The notes under the pieces are model-generated. The model did not search any database. It saw only the letters and a program-made list of their open reading frames with translations, and was not told the origin of the DNA. From the sequence record NC_049388.1: a DNA stretch of 32,150 nt. The stretch is one strand, 5' to 3'. This document shows, in pieces, positions 1,205 to 18,055 of this stretch. Source of the DNA: Peduovirus P24C9. The position numbers were made by a program, and so were the translations under genes. Numbering within the stretch: the stretch's first letter is position 1; each line of letters opens with the position of its first letter.

Positions 1205-2976
1205 CAGTAAAACTCCAGAATGGTGGATGTCAGCGGGGTGCTGATACCGGCGGTGAGTGGCTCATTTAACAGGGCGTGCATGGTCGCCCAGGCGAGGTCG
1301 GCGTGGCTGGCTTCCTCGCTGCGACTGGCCTCATAGGTGGCGCTGCGTCCGCTGCTGGTCATGGTCTTTCGGATAGCCATAAACGAGCTGGTGATGTCGG
1401 TGGCGCTGACGTCATATTCCAGACAGCCACGGCGGATAACGTCTTTTGCCTTGAGCACCATTGCGGTTTTCATTTCCGGTGTGTAGCGGATATCGCGCGC
1501 GGCGGGATAGAACGAGCGCACGAGCTGGAACACGCCGACACCGAGGCCGGTGGCATCAATACCGATGTATTCGACGTTGTATTTTTCGGTGAGTTTGCGG
1601 ATGGATTCCGCCTGAGTGGCAAAGTCCATGCCTTTCCACTGGTGACGCTCAAGTATTCTGAATTTGCCACCGGCCACCACCGGTGGTGCCAGCACCACGC
1701 ATCCGGCGCTGTCGCCACGGTGTGACGGGTCGTAACCAATCCATACCGGGCGGGAGCCGAACGGATTGGCGGCAAACGGCGCATAGTCTTCCCATTCTTC
1801 CAGCGTGTCGACCATGCAGCGTTGCAGCTCCTCGAACGGGAACACCGACGCCTTGTCGTCAACAAATTCACACATGAACAGGTTTTTAAAATCGTCGGCG
1901 CTGTTTTCGCGTTTGAGCTGTTCAATGTCGAACAGCGTGCAGCCGCCTTTCAGGGCGTCCTCAATGGTGACAATCTGCCGCCACTGGCCGTCCGCACAGA
2001 GAAGCCCACCGGCAAGGGCGTTATGACTGACGTCGATTTCCACGCGTTCGGCGGCGCTGGCGCGTCCCCGGTTGAACAGTTCACCTGACCAGAACGGGTA
2101 GGCGTCGTGCGCCAGCGTGGACGGGGTGGAGAAATAGGTCGAGCGCAGGTGACTCTGTGAGGCCATACCTGATGCCACCTTACGCAGTACCTGAAAATTC
2201 GGGATCCAGAAAATCTCATCGACGTACAGGTCGCCGTTATGGCTCTGTGCGGTGTTGGAGTTGGTGCCGAGAAAAATCAGTTTTGCACCGTTATTGCCCA
2301 GGACAATCGGGTCACCGGTCAGGTCAACGTCAACCAGCCGGGCAAAGGCAATGATGTATTCGCGGAACACATACGCCTGCGTTTTACTGGCCGACAGAAA
2401 AATCTGGTTATGACCGGTTTTCAGGGCGCGCAGCAGCGCCTCGCGGGAAAAATAAAACGTCGCGCCAATCTGGCGGGATTTCAGGATATCGCGGATGCGG
2501 TGCTCAAGCCCGGCGCGATACCAGTGCAACTGATAGTCGAAAGACTGCTCAAAGAAAATCTGCTCCAGCTTTTCGATGGCCTCGTCACTGAAAAAATTCT
2601 TTTTCGGTTTGCGCCGCCCGCTTTTGTTGCGGTTAGCGACGTTCGGATTAAGGTCTGCCTCGCTGCCGGTCTGGCTGTAACGATTTACCCGTGCCAGTCG
2701 TTCAATCTGGCGTCCCAGCAGGTCAATTTCCTTGAAGTCACCGCCGGTTTTCTGCGGTTTGATGATGAGCTGGGTCAGCCGCGCTTCCAGGCTCATTTCG
2801 ACACGGCTGATGGGGGCAACGTTGTCCCAGCCGTCGCGCTGTTTCCAGCTCTGCACTGTCGGGCGTTTCATCTGCAACATGGCGGCAATCTGCGGCACGG
2901 AAAACCCCTGCCAGTACAGCAGCGCCGCCTGACGACGCGGGTCGTGTAAAAGAGTGGTGTCTGTGGTGATGGTCAT
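1204..2976 (-). CDS. P: Terminase large (ATPase) subunit
   Basis: ORF track gives 600 aa from 3006; I place the start at the internal Met (MTITTDTTLLHDP..., 2976), giving 590 aa as in P2 gpP; divergent from O. Confidence 0.85.
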   Translation of the reverse strand: MTITTDTTLLHDPRRQAALLYWQGFSVPQIAAMLQMKRPTVQSWKQRDGWDNVAPISRVEMSLEARLTQLIIKPQKTGGDFKEIDLLGRQIERLARVNRYSQTGSEADLNPNVANRNKSGRRKPKKNFFSDEAIEKLEQIFFEQSFDYQLHWYRAGLEHRIRDILKSRQIGATFYFSREALLRALKTGHNQIFLSASKTQAYVFREYIIAFARLVDVDLTGDPIVLGNNGAKLIFLGTNSNTAQSHNGDLYVDEIFWIPNFQVLRKVASGMASQSHLRSTYFSTPSTLAHDAYPFWSGELFNRGRASAAERVEIDVSHNALAGGLLCADGQWRQIVTIEDALKGGCTLFDIEQLKRENSADDFKNLFMCEFVDDKASVFPFEELQRCMVDTLEEWEDYAPFAANPFGSRPVWIGYDPSHRGDSAGCVVLAPPVVAGGKFRILERHQWKGMDFATQAESIRKLTEKYNVEYIGIDATGLGVGVFQLVRSFYPAARDIRYTPEMKTAMVLKAKDVIRRGCLEYDVSATDITSSFMAIRKTMTSSGRSATYEASRSEEASHADLAWATMHALLNEPLTAGISTPLTSTILEFY

Positions 2977-3149
2977 GAATACCTCGCCGTGATGAATACA
3001 CGGCAAGGCTACTGAGTCGCGCCCCGCGATTCGCTAAGGTGCTGTTGTGTCAGTGATAAGCCATCCGGGACTGATGGCGGAGGATGCGCATCGTCGGGAA
3101 ACTGATGCCGACATGTGACTCCTCTAATCACTATTCAGGACTCCTGACA
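2977..3149. promoter_or_regulatory. Divergent P/O intergenic region, expected to hold Ogr-dependent late promoters
   Basis: Non-coding gap between divergently oriented P and O; in P2 this carries the late promoters. I could not find a clean TGT-N12-ACA dyad by eye. Confidence 0.45.
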
Positions 3150-4004
3150 ATGGCAAAAAAAGTCTCAAAATTCTTTCGTATCGGCGTTGAGGGTGACACC
3201 TGTGACGGGCGTGTCATCAGTGCGCAGGATATTCAGGAAATGGCCGAAACCTTTGACCCGCGTGTCTATGGTTGCCGCATTAACCTGGAACATCTGCGCG
3301 GCATCCTGCCTGACGGTATTTTTAAGCGTTATGGCGATGTGGTCGAACTGAAGGCCGAAAAGATTGACGATGATTCGGCGCTGAAAGGCAAATGGGCGCT
3401 GTTTGCGAAAATCACCCCGACCGATGACCTTATCGCGATGAACAAGGCCGCGCAGAAGGTCTATACCTCAATGGAAATTCAGCCGAACTTTGCCAATACC
3501 GGCAAATGTTATCTGGTGGGTCTGGCCGTCACCGATGACCCGGCAAGCCTCGGCACGGAATACCTGGAATTCTGCCGCACGGCAAAACACAACCCTCTGA
3601 ACCGCTTCAAATTAAGCCCTGAAAACCTGATTTCAGTGGCAACGCCTGTTGAGCTGGAATTTGAAGACCTGCCTGAAACCGTGTTCACAGCCCTGACCGA
3701 AAAGGTGAAATCCATTTTTGGCCGCAAACAGGCCAGCGATGACGCCCGTCTGAATGACGTGCATGAAGCGGTGACCGCTGTCGCTGAGCATGTGCAGGAA
3801 AAACTGAGCGCCACTGAGCAGCGCCTTGCTGAGATGGAAACCGCCTTTTCCGCACTTAAGCAGGATGTGACTGACAGGGCGGATGAAACCAGCCAGGCAT
3901 TCACCCGCCTGAAAAACAGCCTCGACCACACCGAAAGTCTGACCCAGCAGCGCCGCAGCAAGGCCACCGGCGGTGGCGGTGATGCCCTGATGACGAACTG
4001 CTGA
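3150..4004 (+). CDS. O: Capsid scaffolding protein
   Basis: Start placed at internal ATG 3150 (MAKKVSKFFRIG...), giving 284 aa as in P2 gpO; the ORF track extends upstream to 3084. Confidence 0.85.
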   Translation: MAKKVSKFFRIGVEGDTCDGRVISAQDIQEMAETFDPRVYGCRINLEHLRGILPDGIFKRYGDVVELKAEKIDDDSALKGKWALFAKITPTDDLIAMNKAAQKVYTSMEIQPNFANTGKCYLVGLAVTDDPASLGTEYLEFCRTAKHNPLNRFKLSPENLISVATPVELEFEDLPETVFTALTEKVKSIFGRKQASDDARLNDVHEAVTAVAEHVQEKLSATEQRLAEMETAFSALKQDVTDRADETSQAFTRLKNSLDHTESLTQQRRSKATGGGGDALMTNC

Positions 4005-11842: not shown

Positions 11843-14602
11843 ATGAGCACGAAATTTAAAACCGTTATCACTACTGCCGGAGCCGCAAAGCTGGCAGCCG
11901 CCACTGTCCCCGGCGGGAAAAAAGTAAACCTGTCTGCAATGGCCGTGGGTGACGGTAATGGCAAATTGCCGGTGCCGGATGCCGGTCAGACGAAACTGGT
12001 GCATGAGGTCTGGCGTCACGCTCTGAATAAAGTCAGCGTGGATAATAAGAATAAAAACTATATCGTGGCTGAACTGGTGGTACCGCCAGAAGTGGGCGGC
12101 TTCTGGATGCGTGAACTTGGTCTGTATGACGATGCCGGAACACTGATTGCGGTCGCCAACATGGCAGAAAGCTATAAGCCTGAACTGGCTGAAGGCTCCG
12201 GACGTGCGCAGACCTGCCGCATGGTCATTATTGTCAGTAACGTGGCATCCGTTGAGCTGAGTATTGATGCCAGCACAGTGATGGCGACGCAGGATTACGT
12301 CGATGACAAAATCGCAGAGCATGAGCAGTCCCGTCGCCATCCTGACGCCACGCTGACAGAAAAAGGTTTTACTCAGTTAAGCAGTGCAACAAACAGCACC
12401 AGTGAAAAGCTGGCAGCAACGCCAAAGGCAGTAAAAGCAGCCTATGACAATGCTGAAAAACGTATGCAGAAAGACCAGAACGGTGGCGATATTCCAGATA
12501 AGGGCGCTTTTCTGGACAATGTTGGCGTTACCAGCCTGACGTTTATGAAAAACAATGGCGAAATGCCGCTTGATGCTGACCTGAATACATTTGGTCCCGT
12601 TAAGGCTTATCTGGGGATCTGGTCTAAAGCTACCTCAACTAACGCAACACTGGAGAAAAATTTCCCGGAAGATAATGCTGTCGGTGTGCTTGAGGTTTTT
12701 GCTGCCGGCAATTTTGCAGGTACGCAACGCTTTACCACAAGAGACGGCAATGTATACATGCGTAAACTCGCCAATAAGTGGAATGGCACTGATGGTCCGT
12801 GGGGCGTATGGCGTCACACTCAATCAGCTACCCGCCCTTTGAGTACGACTATAGACCTGAATACGCTTGGAGCCGCCGAACATCTTGGTTTATGGCGTAA
12901 CAGTAGCTCGGCTATAGCTTCATATGAACGCAATTATCCAGAGGAAGGCGGCTTTGCTCAGGGGACGCTTGAGATCCTCGAAGGCGGGAATTATGGAAGA
13001 ACGCAACGTTATACCACTCGCCGTGGAAATATGTACGTCCGCTGCCTTGCGGCAAGCTGGGATGCATCAAATCCGCAGTGGGAACCGTGGTTAAGAGTCG
13101 GTCATCAGTCAGAGAGTCGTTATTACGACGGGGATTTGAATGATGTGACTTCACCAGGTATTTACAGCGTTACAGGTAAAGCGACCAACGGTCCAGTACT
13201 GGACGGAAACGGCGTGACAGTCCTCGGTATTCTGGAAGTGTTGAGGCGCTTTGATGGTGTTAACGTATGGCAGCGTTATACAACTGCCGGAACAGGTACA
13301 ACCCTTAAAGGTCGCACGTTTGAGCGTGTTTTTACCGGCAGCTCATGGAGCGAATGGCGGGAAGTTTACACATCTTATTCACTTCCCCTGAATCTGGGCA
13401 TCGGTGGCGCAGTGGCAAAACTATCCAGTCTGGACTGGCAGACCTACGACTTTGTACCGGGTAGTCTGATAACCGTTCGGCTTGATAATATGACCAACAT
13501 TCCCGACGGTATGGACTGGGGCGTCATTGATGGCAACCTGATAAACATCTCAGTCGGTCCGAGTGATGATTCTGGTTCGGGACGCTCGATGCATGTATGG
13601 CGCAGCACTGTAAGTAAGGCCAACTACCGCTTTTTTATGGTGCGTATTTCAGGAAATCCGGGAAGCCGCACGATCACAGCAAGACGAGTACCAATCATTG
13701 ACGAAGCCCAGACATGGGGCGCGAAACAGACATTCAGTGCTGGCCTTTCTGGTGAACTGTCCGGCAATGCGGCGACAGCAACAAAGCTGAAAACAGCCCG
13801 TAAAATTAATAACGTTTCGTTTGATGGAACATCAGATATTAACCTGACGCCGAAAAATATTGGTGCATTTGCTTCAGGAAAAACAGGAGACACCGTTGCG
13901 AATGATAAAGCCGTTGGGTGGAACTGGAGTAGCGGAGCCTATAACGCAACTACTGGTGGGGCATCAACGTTAATTCTTCATTTTAATATCGGTGAAGGAA
14001 GTTGTCCCGCCGCCCAGTTCCGCGTTAATTATAAGAACGGCGGTATTTTTTATCGTTCTGCTCGTGACGGTTACGGATTCGAGGCTGACTGGTCTGAGTT
14101 TTATACCACAACGCGAAAACCTACAGCGGGAGATGTCGGTGCACTGCCGTTATCTGGTGGTCAATTGAATGGTGCTCTGGGTATAGGAACATCCAGTGCT
14201 CTTGGCGGTAATTCGATTGTTTTGGGTGATAATGACACGGGCTTTAAACAAAATGGTGATGGTAATCTGGATGTTTATGCTAATAGCGTCCATATTATGC
14301 GCTTTGTCTCGGGAAGTATTCAAAGTAATAAAACCATAAATATTACGGGGCGTGTTAATCCCTCGGATTACGGTAACTTTGATTCCCGCTATGTCCGGGA
14401 TATCCGGCTTGGTGGTGCTGCCACATACAAACCTGCGAACAATGGCATGACATGGACACATCAGGCACCGTCCGGGTGTGTATATTCCGGCATTATTGTT
14501 CAGGATACCGGCTCAAACTCTGCCGATAACATTGGTGGTGTATATTACAGACCGGTTCAGAAATACATTAACGGGACATGGTATAACGTGGCGCAGGTAT
14601 AA
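11843..14602 (+). CDS. H: Tail fibre protein, with P2 H-like N-terminus and a divergent repeat-containing C-terminal region
   Basis: 919 aa (P2 gpH is shorter, as I recall); the first ~200 aa look P2 H-like; aa ~240-500 hold three ~80-90 aa tandem repeats; DNA becomes visibly AT-richer from ~12300. Confidence 0.85.
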   Translation: MSTKFKTVITTAGAAKLAAATVPGGKKVNLSAMAVGDGNGKLPVPDAGQTKLVHEVWRHALNKVSVDNKNKNYIVAELVVPPEVGGFWMRELGLYDDAGTLIAVANMAESYKPELAEGSGRAQTCRMVIIVSNVASVELSIDASTVMATQDYVDDKIAEHEQSRRHPDATLTEKGFTQLSSATNSTSEKLAATPKAVKAAYDNAEKRMQKDQNGGDIPDKGAFLDNVGVTSLTFMKNNGEMPLDADLNTFGPVKAYLGIWSKATSTNATLEKNFPEDNAVGVLEVFAAGNFAGTQRFTTRDGNVYMRKLANKWNGTDGPWGVWRHTQSATRPLSTTIDLNTLGAAEHLGLWRNSSSAIASYERNYPEEGGFAQGTLEILEGGNYGRTQRYTTRRGNMYVRCLAASWDASNPQWEPWLRVGHQSESRYYDGDLNDVTSPGIYSVTGKATNGPVLDGNGVTVLGILEVLRRFDGVNVWQRYTTAGTGTTLKGRTFERVFTGSSWSEWREVYTSYSLPLNLGIGGAVAKLSSLDWQTYDFVPGSLITVRLDNMTNIPDGMDWGVIDGNLINISVGPSDDSGSGRSMHVWRSTVSKANYRFFMVRISGNPGSRTITARRVPIIDEAQTWGAKQTFSAGLSGELSGNAATATKLKTARKINNVSFDGTSDINLTPKNIGAFASGKTGDTVANDKAVGWNWSSGAYNATTGGASTLILHFNIGEGSCPAAQFRVNYKNGGIFYRSARDGYGFEADWSEFYTTTRKPTAGDVGALPLSGGQLNGALGIGTSSALGGNSIVLGDNDTGFKQNGDGNLDVYANSVHIMRFVSGSIQSNKTINITGRVNPSDYGNFDSRYVRDIRLGGAATYKPANNGMTWTHQAPSGCVYSGIIVQDTGSNSADNIGGVYYRPVQKYINGTWYNVAQV

Positions 14603-14605
14603 TTT

Positions 14606-15133
14606 ATGCAGCATTTAAAAAATATTACGGCGGGTAATCCAAAAACGGTTGAACAATATCAATTGACAAAGGACTTTGATGTTGTCTGGTTTTTTTCAGA
14701 AGATGGTAAGAACTGGTACGAAGAACAAAAGTATTTTGCTGATGACACGATAAAAATAGCGTACGACAAAGATAATATTATCCGCTATGTGGAAAAGGAT
14801 GTGACAGCTATCAGACCGGATGGATTAAGTGTTGTTGAAGTGGCGGATATTACTACTAACCGACGGGCGGACATTTCAGGGGGCTGGATGTTTAAGGACG
14901 GCAAAGTGATTAAACGCATTTATACGGCAGAGGAATTGCTGCAGCAGGCAGAAAACCGGAAAGCCAGACTTCTTGCAGATGCTGAATCCGTGATTTTGCC
15001 GCTGGAGCGCGCGGTCAGACTGAACATGGCAACAGATGAGGAGCGTAGCCGACTGGAAGCATGGGAACGCTACAGCGTTCTGGTCAGTCGTGTGGAGCCT
15101 GCAAATCCTAAATGGCCGGAAATGCCGCAATAA
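14606..15133 (+). CDS. G: Tail fibre assembly chaperone
   Basis: 175 aa directly after H; matches my recollection of P2 gpG (conserved ...[13 protein letters not shown]...PEMPQ C-terminus). Confidence 0.85.
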
Positions 15134-15281
15134 GTTGTATGAGCTTACATATCTATTGCGTAGAGTAAAGCATAATCTGACAGTCCGCTCTGTGCCAGAA
15201 GCGGACATAGCAGGTGCCAGATGCATCTGTTATTCTTCATTGAATTGAGCAGTATCCTTAACAGGAACTCTGAATACATAA

Positions 15282-15920
15282 ATGAAGATGAAAAACATGT
15301 CTGAAGTGTTGACCCAAGAAAAGCTTATTTTTGTTGCCCAGAGACTAAAGGCCCTCGCGCAGTCAGGCCTGACCTATTCAAAAGACGTCTTTGACAAGGA
15401 ACGCTATGAAGCCTTGCGTGAAATTGCCGCTGGACTGCTGAGTTCGCAGTTTGATATTAGCCGCAATGATTTGTTTCATGTATCGGAAACGGGTTACGCG
15501 ACGCCCAAAACAGATGTGCGTGCGTTTATCCTGCGCAATAATCGTATTCTGATGGTGAAAGAGGCTGCAGATGGATTATGGAGTCTTCCTGGCGGATGGG
15601 CAGATGTTGGAGATACACCTTCTGAAGCTGTGCGTCGAGAGGTCGAAGAAGAAACCGGATTAAAAGTCAGAGTGACTAAACTATTGGGAGTTTGGGATCG
15701 TAATCTTCACGGCCATCCGCCTTTACCCTGGCATGTTTACAAGCTGATTTTTCTCTGTGAAGAAGTAGGTGGCAGCCTGTCAATCAGCCATGAGTCACTC
15801 GATGCTGATTTTTTTGATGTCAACGACCTGCCTGAATTGTCGCTTTCAAGAATTGTGCCTGAGCAGATTGCTGTCAGCCTGAGAGTAGCGAAAGGTGATG
15901 AAAAAACATGGTTTGATTAA
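15282..15920 (+). CDS. Nudix-family hydrolase with an N-terminal extension (accessory gene)
   Basis: Nudix box GWADVG-D-TPSEAVR-REVEEETGL fits GX5EX7REUXEEXGU with Asp for the first Glu; ~90 aa N-terminal domain; AT-richer than flanks; inserted between G and FI. Confidence 0.8.
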   Translation: MKMKNMSEVLTQEKLIFVAQRLKALAQSGLTYSKDVFDKERYEALREIAAGLLSSQFDISRNDLFHVSETGYATPKTDVRAFILRNNRILMVKEAADGLWSLPGGWADVGDTPSEAVRREVEEETGLKVRVTKLLGVWDRNLHGHPPLPWHVYKLIFLCEEVGGSLSISHESLDADFFDVNDLPELSLSRIVPEQIAVSLRVAKGDEKTWFD

Positions 15921-15943
15921 CTTTCTTCTGCAACCATTAAGGA

Positions 15944-16588
15944 ATGGCAATGATATTCAACGCTAAGGGTTTTTTATTCGATATGGACGGTACGCTGGTT
16001 GATTCAACAGCCGTAGTGGAAAGCGTCTGGAGAGATTTTTGTGCAGAATACGGTCTTGATACTCAGGCTGTGATTGCTTACGCACACGGGCGGCAAACGA
16101 TTGATACACTGACGCATTTTATTGGTGCAGGTGAGAAAACCAATAAAATCGCGGCCTCACTCGAAGAGGTTGAAATCAACACGACAGAAGGCGTTACTGA
16201 AGTAAAAGGGGCCGCTGCACTCTTATCAAAACTGCCACCGGATAGCTGGGCACTTGTCACTTCGGCAGGCAGAATGCTTGCCGAAAACAGGATGAAAGCG
16301 GCTAATCTCCCCTTACCCATAGTAATGGTGTGTGCAGAAGATGTAATGACGGGAAAACCAAGTCCCGAGGGTTACATCAAAGCAGCTTTGGCTTTGGGCC
16401 TTGAGCCTGGTGAATGCGTGGTATTTGAGGATGCATCTGCGGGTATAAAAGCAGGGCTGGCAAGTGGAGCTTCGGTAATAGCTGTTCAGCCTGACGCTCC
16501 GGGATCATCTGAAGCCCATGCCGTCAGCGAACTGTCTGACATTATGGTCAAGATTTCCGGAGAACGTTTCAATATCATCTGTGGTTAA
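15944..16588 (+). CDS. HAD-superfamily phosphatase, YfbT-like sugar-phosphatase subfamily (accessory gene)
   Basis: HAD motif I FLFDMDGTLVDS (DxDGT), conserved Lys in GKPSPEGY, motif IV-like FEDASAGIKAG; overall resemblance to E. coli YfbT as I recall it; RBS aggaatgg precedes the ATG. Confidence 0.8.
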   Translation: MAMIFNAKGFLFDMDGTLVDSTAVVESVWRDFCAEYGLDTQAVIAYAHGRQTIDTLTHFIGAGEKTNKIAASLEEVEINTTEGVTEVKGAAALLSKLPPDSWALVTSAGRMLAENRMKAANLPLPIVMVCAEDVMTGKPSPEGYIKAALALGLEPGECVVFEDASAGIKAGLASGASVIAVQPDAPGSSEAHAVSELSDIMVKISGERFNIICG

Positions 16589-16740
16589 TCACGTTACACA
16601 ATACGCATCAATGGACGCTGAGTAGTTCGCGAGTTTTAAACTTCCAACGTCCGCTTTTCGCTCCAAGCAGACTGTCAGATTTGATAGCGTTTTGGCTATG
16701 TAAATTGTCAGTCGGAAAATGAGTGAATACAAATCAGGAC

Positions 16741-16769
16741 AGGCGGGCTGATTGCCCGCCTTTTCTTTA
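16741..16769 (+). terminator. Rho-independent terminator after the accessory pair
   Basis: Hairpin ggcgggc-tgatt-gcccgcc followed by TTTTCTTT, lying between the HAD stop and the FI start. Confidence 0.65.
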
Positions 16770-16864
16770 TCTGTTGTTTCATCCCCTGACCAGCCAGGTC
16801 AAATAGCGTCTCATGCTCTGCACAACAGAAAATAGTTGCACCCATTAACCACGGAGTTAAACGG

Positions 16865-18055
16865 ATGAGTGACTATCATCACGGCGTGCAGGTGCTGGAG
16901 ATTAACGACGGCACCCGCGTCATTTCCACCGTATCCACTGCCATTGTCGGCATGGTCTGCACGGCCAGCGATGCGGATGCGGAAACCTTTCCCCTCAATA
17001 AACCTGTGCTGATTACCAATGTGCAGAGCGCAATTGCAAAGGCCGGTAAAAAAGGCACGCTGGCGGCGTCGCTGCAGGCCATCGCCGACCAGTCAAAACC
17101 GGTCACCGTTGTTGTGCGCGTGGAAGACGGCACCGGCGACGACGAGGAAACGAAACTTGCGCAGACCGTTTCCAATATCATCGGCACCACCGACGAAAAC
17201 GGTCAGTACACCGGACTGAAAGCCCTGCTGGCGGCGGAGTCAGTAACCGGTGTTAAACCGCGTATTCTCGGCGTGCCGGGACTGGACACCAAAGAGGTGG
17301 CTGTTGCACTGGCATCGGTCTGTCAGAAGCTGCGCGCTTTCGGGTATATCAGCGCATGGGGCTGTAAGACCATTTCCGAGGTGAAAGCCTACCGCCAGAA
17401 TTTCAGCCAGCGTGAGCTGATGGTCATCTGGCCGGATTTCCTCGCATGGGATACGGTCACCAGTACCACCGCCACCGCGTATGCCACCGCCCGTGCGCTG
17501 GGTCTGCGCGCTAAAATCGACCAGGAGCAGGGCTGGCATAAAACGCTGTCCAACGTCGGGGTGAACGGTGTTACCGGCATCAGCGCGTCCGTATTCTGGG
17601 ATTTGCAGGAGTCCGGCACCGATGCTGACCTGCTTAACGAGTCAGGCGTCACAACGCTGATTCGCCGTGACGGTTTCCGCTTCTGGGGTAACCGTACCTG
17701 CTCTGATGACCCGCTGTTCCTCTTTGAAAACTACACCCGCACCGCGCAGGTGCTGGCCGACACGATGGCTGAGGCGCACATGTGGGCGGTGGACAAGCCC
17801 ATCACCGCAACGCTGATTCGCGACATCGTTGACGGCATCAATGCCAAATTCCGTGAGTTGAAAACAAACGGCTATATCGTGGATGCGACCTGCTGGTTCA
17901 GCGAAGAATCCAACGATGCGGAAACCCTCAAGGCCGGAAAACTGTATATCGACTACGACTATACACCGGTACCTCCTCTTGAAAACCTGACCCTGCGCCA
18001 GCGTATTACCGATAAATACCTGGCAAATCTGGTCACCTCGGTTAACAGCAATTAA
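16865..18055 (+). CDS. FI: Tail sheath protein
   Basis: 396 aa, P2 FI length and position, followed by the tube gene. Confidence 0.9.
   Translation: MSDYHHGVQVLEINDGTRVISTVSTAIVGMVCTASDADAETFPLNKPVLITNVQSAIAKAGKKGTLAASLQAIADQSKPVTVVVRVEDGTGDDEETKLAQTVSNIIGTTDENGQYTGLKALLAAESVTGVKPRILGVPGLDTKEVAVALASVCQKLRAFGYISAWGCKTISEVKAYRQNFSQRELMVIWPDFLAWDTVTSTTATAYATARALGLRAKIDQEQGWHKTLSNVGVNGVTGISASVFWDLQESGTDADLLNESGVTTLIRRDGFRFWGNRTCSDDPLFLFENYTRTAQVLADTMAEAHMWAVDKPITATLIRDIVDGINAKFRELKTNGYIVDATCWFSEESNDAETLKAGKLYIDYDYTPVPPLENLTLRQRITDKYLANLVTSVNSN

Follow-up and report, generated by a model that had tools for sequence, protein, structure and literature searches.

Between the tail-fibre assembly gene G and the tail sheath gene FI, P2-like phages have a variable slot, the Z/fun position, and in Peduovirus P24C9 (NC_049388.1; the whole stretch of 32,150 nt that was analysed is called the window below) two genes, predicted to encode a Nudix hydrolase and a HAD phosphatase, are located in this slot (15134–16864). 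The question raised by the locus is where this pair comes from, how it came to stand between two tail genes and what it may do there. The window is 100% identical to Escherichia phage 10W (OM475433.1), a P2-like Peduovirus, and the locus is referred to here by that name. We consider it probable that the G–FI gap of 10W holds a mobile cargo cassette, a passenger with a predicted two-step chemistry on nucleoside diphosphate-linked compounds (NDP-X) and with no part in tail assembly.

A 1.49-kb cassette in five genomic contexts

Two intact open reading frames, first that of the Nudix hydrolase and then that of the HAD phosphatase, lie between gpG and gpFI, both on the + strand and both with Pfam support, as the initial annotation had described. 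They belong to a cassette of 1,490 bp (15183–16672) with a palindrome, termed L and R, at either end, and the limits of this cassette are set by comparison, the homology of 10W to every copy outside P2 starting at 15183/15184 and ending at 16672/16673. Copies with identical ends and 99.2–99.8% identity were found in five genomic contexts. The first is the P2 G/FI slot of 10W itself, and the second is a lambdoid slot between DUF977 and hokD (AR_0017, SCU-125, MLI121, 15A, PapRG-04-4 and eight of the nine IMG/VR copies). In the third the cassette stands beside paoABCD, where a lambdoid tail-fibre region ends; the fourth is an island that has an integrase and also an ankyrin-repeat protein, and there the HAD gene has an internal deletion; in the fifth the cassette occupies the variable cos-proximal locus of a 186/P2-type prophage, with a DinI-like gene (itself downstream of gpA) on one side and the portal gene on the other. 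The lambdoid DUF977–hokD slot is the main home of the cassette. Four of the IMG/VR lambdoid copies have a left flank that is only 87–91% identical, together with a cassette that is at least 99.2% identical (99.2–99.5%). A search for the lambdoid site in its empty form, with the two AR_0017 flanks joined as the query, found no genome in which they are adjacent; some cargo is present there in every case.

The pair had been interpreted at the outset as foreign cargo in a known variable slot, and comparison of the junction across P2-like phages bears this out. Between G and FI, each of eight other P2-like phages has a cargo of its own, and the junction is empty in Yersinia phage P37 and Salmonella phage FSL SP-004. 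The intact pair is present in 10W only among 50,697 phage records, and the cassette is found in 22 of 5,426 complete E. coli genomes but at G/FI in none of them, as against 1,061 genomes with the P2-type right flank; the best match to the whole G–FI region covers the cassette only (86% of the query). The view that both genes form part of the conserved core of P2-like phages here has in its favour their position and orientation, matching those of tail operons, and nothing further; it is refuted to near certainty by these counts, by the eight other cargos and by the empty junctions. The cassette has instead the properties of a cargo of the P2 Z/fun slot, in that it lies between G and FI, is flanked by conserved inverted repeats and is replaced or absent in other P2-like phages. 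A further phage, 11W (OM475429.1; locus L002), has both flanks 100% identical to those of 10W and 386 N in 1,340 bases (29%) across the cassette (locus positions 2104–3332), none of them outside it. A decayed cassette was considered for this copy and rejected, the low identity being that of an ambiguous consensus (N) and the features labelled 'similar to hypothetical protein' being no real pseudogenes; the 11W record suggests a lysate that was mixed, or poorly covered, at the variable slot.

The pair is also inherited together elsewhere, a point that the initial annotation had marked for checking. In the closest diverged relatives (amino acid identities of 91% for Nudix and 85% for HAD in locus L015, 89 and 84% in L018, and 80 and 71% in L016/L017) the two genes are kept together with the same spacing of 26–28 nt (the conserved range over the pair as a whole being 23–29 nt) and have evolved colinearly, with dN/dS ratios of 0.06–0.10 for Nudix and 0.10–0.17 for HAD that indicate purifying selection. 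In L015 and L018 the unit reads L–GGACT–Nudix–HAD–R and lies in an ordinary chromosomal neighbourhood. When set against L018 and L015, the leader of the 10W cassette (15207–15296, + strand) shows homology to two stretches, the leader that precedes GGACT and the GGACT–Nudix junction, and this double match marks the E. coli cassette as a GGACT-deletion derivative. It thus descends from a chromosomal GGACT–Nudix–HAD unit of another enterobacterium. Nudix orthologues at a greater distance (69–84% identity) stand alone in the chromosomes of Cedecea and Pseudescherichia and, going by source name, of Leclercia and other genera, and at locus L008 the Nudix gene alone forms an L...R unit of its own, followed by a second L...R unit. 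Close relatives of the HAD protein (61–99% identity) are rare, and one of them, at 61% identity, stands alone.

The backbone on either side is that of a P2-like phage. Gene G (14606–15133, + strand; Pfam Caudo_TAP, E 5e-33; GpG in OM475433) is the left neighbour and the last gene of the late V-W-J-I-H-G operon, and the right neighbour is FI (16865–18055, + strand; Pfam Phage_sheath_1, Phage_sheath_1C and Gp18_domIII_N). A terminator of its own (16741–16769) had been ascribed to the pair. This rho-independent terminator is real (+ strand; terminator scan, fold −11 kcal/mol, z −4.3), but it is that of the backbone late (G) operon and lies outside the cassette, which stands upstream of it, since P37 and FSL SP-004 keep the corresponding terminator at their empty sites: in both phages the G stop codon is followed directly by an equivalent terminator, then by the FI upstream region and FI. 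The conserved region upstream of FI (16770–16864, + strand) is kept in about 1,061 E. coli genomes and in P2-like phages, and presumably holds the late promoter P_F, as expected from the map of P2. An open reading frame of 45 aa on the minus strand (16708–16845), annotated in 10W and other P2-like records as 'FIG00643520 hypothetical protein', overlaps the late-operon terminator and the FI upstream region; this gene call is likely to be spurious and is probably conserved only through the conserved regulatory DNA. The description of the pair as AT-richer than the flanking tail genes holds with respect to FI/FII (GC content 0.57, compared with 0.469 for the cassette) and to the whole window (0.519), but not with respect to G (0.453) or the C-terminal end of H (0.465), and because the end of H and G are equally AT-rich the low GC content here is not specific to cargo. 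The base composition of the C-terminal part of H (11843–14602) and of G (14606–15133) fits the known mosaic origin of the P2 tail-fibre genes.

Palindromes at the cassette ends

The left end of the cassette is the L element, GTCCGCTCTGTGCCAGAAGCGGAC (15183–15206, + strand), a 24-nt palindrome with the centre GTGCCA, and the right end is the R element, GTCCGCTTTTCGCTCCAAGCAGAC (16649–16672, + strand), which is palindrome-like, also of 24 nt, and has the centre TCGCTC. The two elements stand in direct orientation and have a common stem, GTCCGCT(T)/(A)AGCGGAC, so that each is laid out as a shared 8-bp stem around an 8-nt centre that differs between them. The fold of L has −9 kcal/mol (z −2.9), and the copy of R in the window folds weakly (−3 kcal/mol). 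Outside L and R, the P2 slot has a docking module of two arms, the left (15134–15182) ending in AATCTGACA and the right (16673–16735) starting with TGTCAGATT, which together form an imperfect inverted repeat. These arms are shared across nine P2-like phages despite their other cargos and are absent from the empty sites of P37 and FSL SP-004. Every cargo of the P2 slot is bounded in the same order, with AATCTGACA followed by L on the left and R followed by TGTCAGATT on the right. In the annotation of AJ512685, made by Nilsson's group, the inverted repeats end exactly at L and start exactly at R, the left one being drawn to the inner end of L.

The same palindromes bound many other cargos. A pattern scan of IMG/VR for L, with hits on at least 120 contigs, gave among the matches listed at least 125 L sites (28 in the P2 slot, 23 in the DUF977 slot and 74 with other recurrent flanks) and at least 97 L...R units, which fall into at least 75 cargo clusters of 367–5,916 bp. 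Several of these clusters occur in more than one context; a cargo of 2,785 bp is 99.9% identical between a P2 slot and a lambdoid slot, and two lambdoid slots share one of 1,442 bp at 97.8% identity. Other cargos of the lambdoid DUF977 site are likewise bounded by the same L and R. L/R cassettes also form tandem arrays joined by an R–18 nt–L junction, and the same composite is present in chromosomal copies. The units lie on loci L004, L027, L028, L008, L018, L159 and L234–L353. Their cargos include PD-T7-1 homologues (PADLOC E 7e-157 and 4e-83), PDC-S39 (DUF4209/DUF7380), PDC-S51 (DUF3800), an Mrr-like protein (Mrr_cat) and a SMEK-domain protein, as well as regulators and proteins of unknown function. 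The PD-T7-1 homologues are found in L/R cassettes both of the lambdoid DUF977–hokD slot (L238, L313 and L351) and of the P2 G/FI slot (L319), and a PDC-S39-type gene (DUF7380 and DUF4209) in a lambdoid L/R slot of E. coli 720632 is split by IS1203 (L027, 3872–6972). Beside the Nudix–HAD cassette in the 186/P2-type cos-proximal hotspot, and outside the L/R bounds, there is a block of three genes without Pfam match (377, 142 and 215 aa; L159, 6709–8930; UViG_2698536335_000014) that could be a candidate uncharacterized defence system.

Outside the phage slots, the L-type hairpin is a dispersed intergenic repeat, found in at least 120 genomic stretches. It is present in many Enterobacterales, in several of them with many copies per genome, and reaches high copy number in Hyphomicrobiales, Amphritea and Nitrosomonadales, where two or three hairpins form a unit. 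Its sequence, GTCYGCT-NN-GTGCCA-NN-ARCRGAC, is conserved across alpha-, beta- and gammaproteobacteria. The units of Hyphomicrobiales have the same stem with the loops GGGTCA, ACCCCC and GTGCCA, in many copies per genome and between ordinary genes; examples of hairpin loci are the scan stretches L029–L148, with L067, L071 and L073 from a Hyphomicrobium metagenome-assembled genome (MAG) and L034–L053 from the Hyphomicrobiales MAG OFTM377. Being short, imperfect, multi-copy, intergenic and dispersed, L and R behave like extragenic palindromes of the repetitive extragenic palindromic (REP) type, for which the conservation of the L hairpin across classes is unusual. To our knowledge they are similar in sequence neither to the REP consensus of E. 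coli nor to attC or Xer sites. An Rfam search with the palindromes returned no matching family, a literal search for their sequences in the searchable literature gave no match, and neither a linked integrase nor a REP-associated tyrosine transposase (RAYT) was identified, the latter without a search aimed at it. An integron-like array was considered for Hyphomicrobium and rejected, the palindromes there enclosing ordinary chromosomal genes (Hsp20, rhomboid, Usp and DinB). An attC site has R''/R' (GTTRRRY) cores and stands in an array beside an IntI integrase; on inspection a GTTRRRY core is absent from L and R (GTCCGCT...AGCGGAC), and no integrase is adjacent in the P2 or lambdoid contexts, and the integron gene cassette was likewise rejected as a description of the 10W unit.

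Our preferred explanation is that the cassette moved recently and with intact ends among at least five sites (P2 Z/fun, P2/186 cos-proximal, lambdoid DUF977–hokD, lambdoid tail-fibre end and integrase island), and that its likeliest route would be cassette exchange, in which L and R recombine with an L/R pair already resident at the site. Site-specific recombination at two heterospecific 8-8-8 sites is a possible mechanism of such exchange, and so is short-homology recombination at the palindromes. It is tempting to go further and to regard L and R as the handles of a general cassette-exchange system, with swaps among P2 and lambdoid hotspots, islands and enterobacterial chromosomes, of which the Nudix–HAD pair would be a passive tracer. 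L and R would then act like heterospecific recombinase sites, the recombination activity would come from the host or the phage, and many of the cassettes would be anti-phage. This wider proposal is a tentative one, which we hold to be possible rather than probable.

The enzyme pair and its possible roles

The Nudix gene is annotated at 15282–15920 (+ strand, 212 aa), but its true start is probably M6 at 15297, since all orthologues have 207 aa, as does the product of 15297–15920. The protein is a 'hypothetical protein' in GenBank, where the HAD protein is a 'putative phosphatase YfbT', and identical copies are named 'NUDIX hydrolase' and 'HAD family hydrolase' in RefSeq. Pfam matches NUDIX at residues 77–184 (E 8e-19) and Nudix_N at residues 14–61 (E 8e-18), in agreement with the intact Nudix box and extra N-terminal domain that had been noticed before. 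The box itself, G-WADVG-D-TPSEAVR-REVEEETGL (residues 105–127 of the 212-aa form), fits GX5EX7REUXEEXGU with the catalytic REx2EE residues intact; its first Glu is replaced by Asp, at a position that is also not Glu in CDP-Chase (Tyr). The closest proteins of solved structure have the same two-domain layout and are CDP-Chase of Bacillus cereus (3Q1P/3Q4I/6NCH; E 7e-50 to 3Q1P, 44.6% identity), a Streptococcus suis protein (3O8S; 42.6%) and the UDP-X diphosphatase SP_1669, or UDP-Xase, of Streptococcus pneumoniae (4HFQ; 37.6%).

The family to which these enzymes belong, and its diagnostic motifs, have been defined (PMC3655063), and all features of it that can be read from a sequence are found in the 10W protein, which places it in the CDP-Chase/UDP-X diphosphatase family and settles which characterized Nudix subfamily is nearest. 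The architecture (Nudix_N and NUDIX) and the length (207 aa from M6) are those of the family. The helix–loop–helix motif G-U-X-Xar-X2-D-X-Xar-D-X-[E/D]-R-Xar is matched by GLTYSKDVFDKERY (residues 29–42), the hinge motif YXTP by YATP (residues 72–75) and LPXLS by LPELS (residues 183–187), and the family Nudix signature GXarXsm[E/D]UX2[S/T]X2EX3KEUXEEXGU is matched by GWADVGDTPSEAVRREVEEETGL with one conservative change of Lys to Arg. Glu113 and Glu162 of UDP-Xase, both essential by mutation, align to Glu115 and Glu166 here (207-aa numbering). Characterized members hydrolyse CDP-choline, or UDP-glucose, UDP-MurNAc and UDP-MurNAc-L-Ala (PMC3655063). The family has been described as restricted to Gram-positive bacteria (PMC3655063); judged by the sequences of this Nudix protein and its many enterobacterial orthologues, it is evidently not.

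The HAD gene (15950–16588, + strand, 212 aa; alternative start at 15944, 214 aa) has a predicted product of the HAD-IA type, a sugar or alcohol phosphate phosphatase like YfbT/HxpA. Membership of HAD-IA was judged from motifs I (DxDGT), II (S/T), III (K) and IV (ED/DD) together with a subfamily profile above its cut-off. All four motifs are intact (FLFDMDGT at residue 10, ALVTS at 103, KPSP at 138 and FEDASAG at 161), and the HAD-IA subfamily model TIGR01509 gives 59.8 bits against a cut-off of 29.4; Pfam HAD_2 matches with E 5e-22, and the best match in the PDB is 2QLT, the yeast glycerol-3-phosphatase Gpp1 (E 2e-22). The resemblance to E. coli YfbT proposed initially stands in so far as the YfbT model of NCBIfam, PRK11587, matches over its full length (191.1 bits, E 1.6e-56), but the score stays below the equivalog cut-off of 282 bits. 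The protein would accordingly be a paralogue that is YfbT-like in fold and subfamily, the score excluding YfbT orthology itself.

Both enzymes look catalytically competent, and with the pair co-inherited at a conserved spacing and under purifying selection, the succession of a pyrophosphatase and a phosphatase step, as first suggested, is the natural reading. The Nudix hydrolase would convert a pyrimidine NDP-X (a UDP- or CDP-linked sugar or alcohol, for example a cell-envelope precursor) to a nucleoside monophosphate and X-phosphate, from which the HAD enzyme would then release X and phosphate. The most likely X is a sugar or an alcohol linked to UDP or CDP, because of the Nudix family and of the sugar/alcohol-phosphatase affinities of the HAD protein. 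We rate the cassette as a probable accessory metabolic or house-cleaning passenger (a 'moron').

The same chemistry, Nudix followed by phosphatase, would also suit compounds of the ADP-ribose (ADPR) type, and YfbT-type enzymes are reported to act on ribose 5-phosphate among other sugar phosphates. An anti-defence module has accordingly to be considered, in which the Nudix enzyme would cleave immune signals or ADPR derivatives (glycocyclic ADPR (gcADPR) of Thoeris, or the signals of CBASS or Pycsar) and the HAD enzyme would remove phosphate. We regard this as quite improbable. The nearest characterized relatives act on CDP-choline and UDP-X rather than on ADPR, the NCBIfam models for ADPR and NAD pyrophosphatases score far below their cut-offs, the Nudix gene is chromosomal in many Enterobacteriaceae, and the cassette is found mainly in resident prophages and an island, not in lytic phages; the viral NAD/ADPr literature surveyed contains no homologue, and PADLOC has no model that fits the pair. 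The roles in degrading immune signalling nucleotides or ADPR derivatives that the initial annotation had entertained thus find no support. Action on RNA, finally, is suggested by the family itself. Both of its characterized members are also 3'–5' RNA exonucleases at the 'open' site of an asymmetric dimer, and the equivalent of Glu162 is conserved here, so that the Nudix protein might be an exonuclease or a decapping-like enzyme, with the HAD protein as a phosphatase of RNA ends or nucleotides, the two modulating transcripts. The reported RNase activity is slow, however (kcat about 0.3 per minute), and the HAD protein groups with sugar/alcohol phosphate phosphatases, apart from polynucleotide phosphatases; we hold such a role to be highly improbable.

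A number of points weigh against a mobile metabolic passenger as set out above. No recombinase linked to the cassette was found, the five insertion sites show by eye neither a target-site duplication, the absence of which is the point that counts here, nor a common target motif, and no empty site with a hybrid L/R palindrome was found. Compensatory covariation is lacking in the L stem, where the counts at the paired position (C-G 79, T-G 41, C-A 17 and T-A 6) are consistent with independence; a folded-strand mechanism at L is neither supported nor excluded by them. The promoter scan gave no sigma-70-like site in 15050–16900, and because of this, and of the position of the cassette upstream of the late-operon terminator, expression in 10W would be likeliest by read-through from the tail-fibre operon. 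Four of the 22 copies in E. coli appear to be damaged (HAD is truncated in two, an IS3 element truncates a third, and in the fourth the Nudix gene is annotated only as an N-terminal-domain protein), which fits weak selection without proving it. The substrate class is a guess, as the family members differ in substrate (CDP-choline or UDP-X) and both are RNA exonucleases as well. Sister L/R cassettes with PD-T7-1 homologues, PDC-S39, PDC-S51, Mrr-like and SMEK proteins, moreover, argue against a neutral passenger.

This last point leads to defence proper. The pair could serve a prophage in defence or superinfection exclusion, the hydrolysis of nucleotide sugars altering lipopolysaccharide, O-antigen or capsule receptors, or depriving T-even phages of the UDP-glucose needed for DNA glucosylation and so exposing them to Mcr-type restriction. 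The slots are suggestive, the cassette being found both in the exclusion slot of P2 (Z/fun) and in the P2 cos-proximal hotspot (Rousset et al., 2022), as are the sister cassettes just named; UDP-Xase, a member of the same family, hydrolyses UDP-glucose and UDP-MurNAc, and there is a weak PADLOC match of the Nudix domain to the candidate PDC-S07 (36.8 bits). That match is at domain level only, however; the HAD protein has none, and PADLOC-DB 2.0 contains no model that fits the pair. The orthologues are stand-alone chromosomal genes without defence context, the ancestral unit includes the GGACT gene and lies in an ordinary chromosomal neighbourhood, the same scan yields no promoter for expression in a lysogen, a constant depletion of UDP-sugars would cost the host, and several copies appear damaged. 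We therefore consider a defence function unlikely, and a passenger with NDP-X chemistry the probable explanation.

Relation to known systems

As an enzyme pair the find is a modest one, the slot being known as variable, the cargo new and its two enzymes members of well-known superfamilies, although it extends a Nudix family thought to be confined to Gram-positive bacteria into the Enterobacterales and their phages. The mobility of the cassette is more interesting, in that one near-identical 1.49-kb unit stands in five unrelated contexts and the same ends are found on at least 75 other cargos, including homologues of a validated defence system. Rousset et al. (2022), who analysed the P2 cos-proximal hotspot, proposed recombination at cos ends without mention of L/R palindromes, and left open how phage hotspots swap their cargo so fast; their supplementary tables contain no Nudix–HAD pair, the sole Nudix entry being an unrelated HNH-NUDIX system of Bacillus. 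The L/R palindromes are concrete candidates for the points of exchange of such cargo, and an exchange system at L and R, if true, would account for how quickly defence cargo turns over at phage hotspots. A literature search for hairpin-bounded moron cassettes and for the 10W accessions found nothing relevant.

Among known enzymes, CDP-Chase and the UDP-X diphosphatase SP_1669, of the asymmetric-dimer Nudix family with an N-terminal helix bundle, are the nearest in sequence to the Nudix protein, which has their predicted architecture and 207-aa length, the four motifs and both catalytic Glu residues. It differs from them in being found in Enterobacterales and their prophages, in the change of Lys to Arg in the signature and in being paired with a HAD protein. 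The latter shares with E. coli YfbT/HxpA and yeast Gpp1 (2QLT) the HAD-IA fold, motifs I–IV and full-length matches, and differs in its YfbT score (191 against 282 bits).

With REP elements and bacterial interspersed mosaic elements (BIMEs), L and R have in common that they are short, dispersed, intergenic palindromes, but L is conserved across proteobacterial classes and has no Rfam family. Integron cassette arrays and the pdif modules of Acinetobacter offer an analogy, as they too consist of discrete, bounded gene modules, and L/R cassettes form tandem arrays through their R–18 nt–L junctions. The closest parallel is the Z/fun ('TO') cargo of P2-like phages (Nilsson et al., 2004), with which the 10W cassette shares the G/FI slot, the flanking inverted repeats and the idea of site-specific exchange; according to the account of that work in a review (PMC8987985), such exchange of fun between phages and bacteria was proposed at the time. 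Compared with the cargo as summarized there, 10W carries an enzyme pair of metabolic type rather than a known exclusion gene, and lambdoid prophages, the other P2 hotspot and an island have the cassette and its palindromes too, so that the palindromes extend to lambdoid phages an idea that, in the same account, was raised in 2004 for P2 alone.

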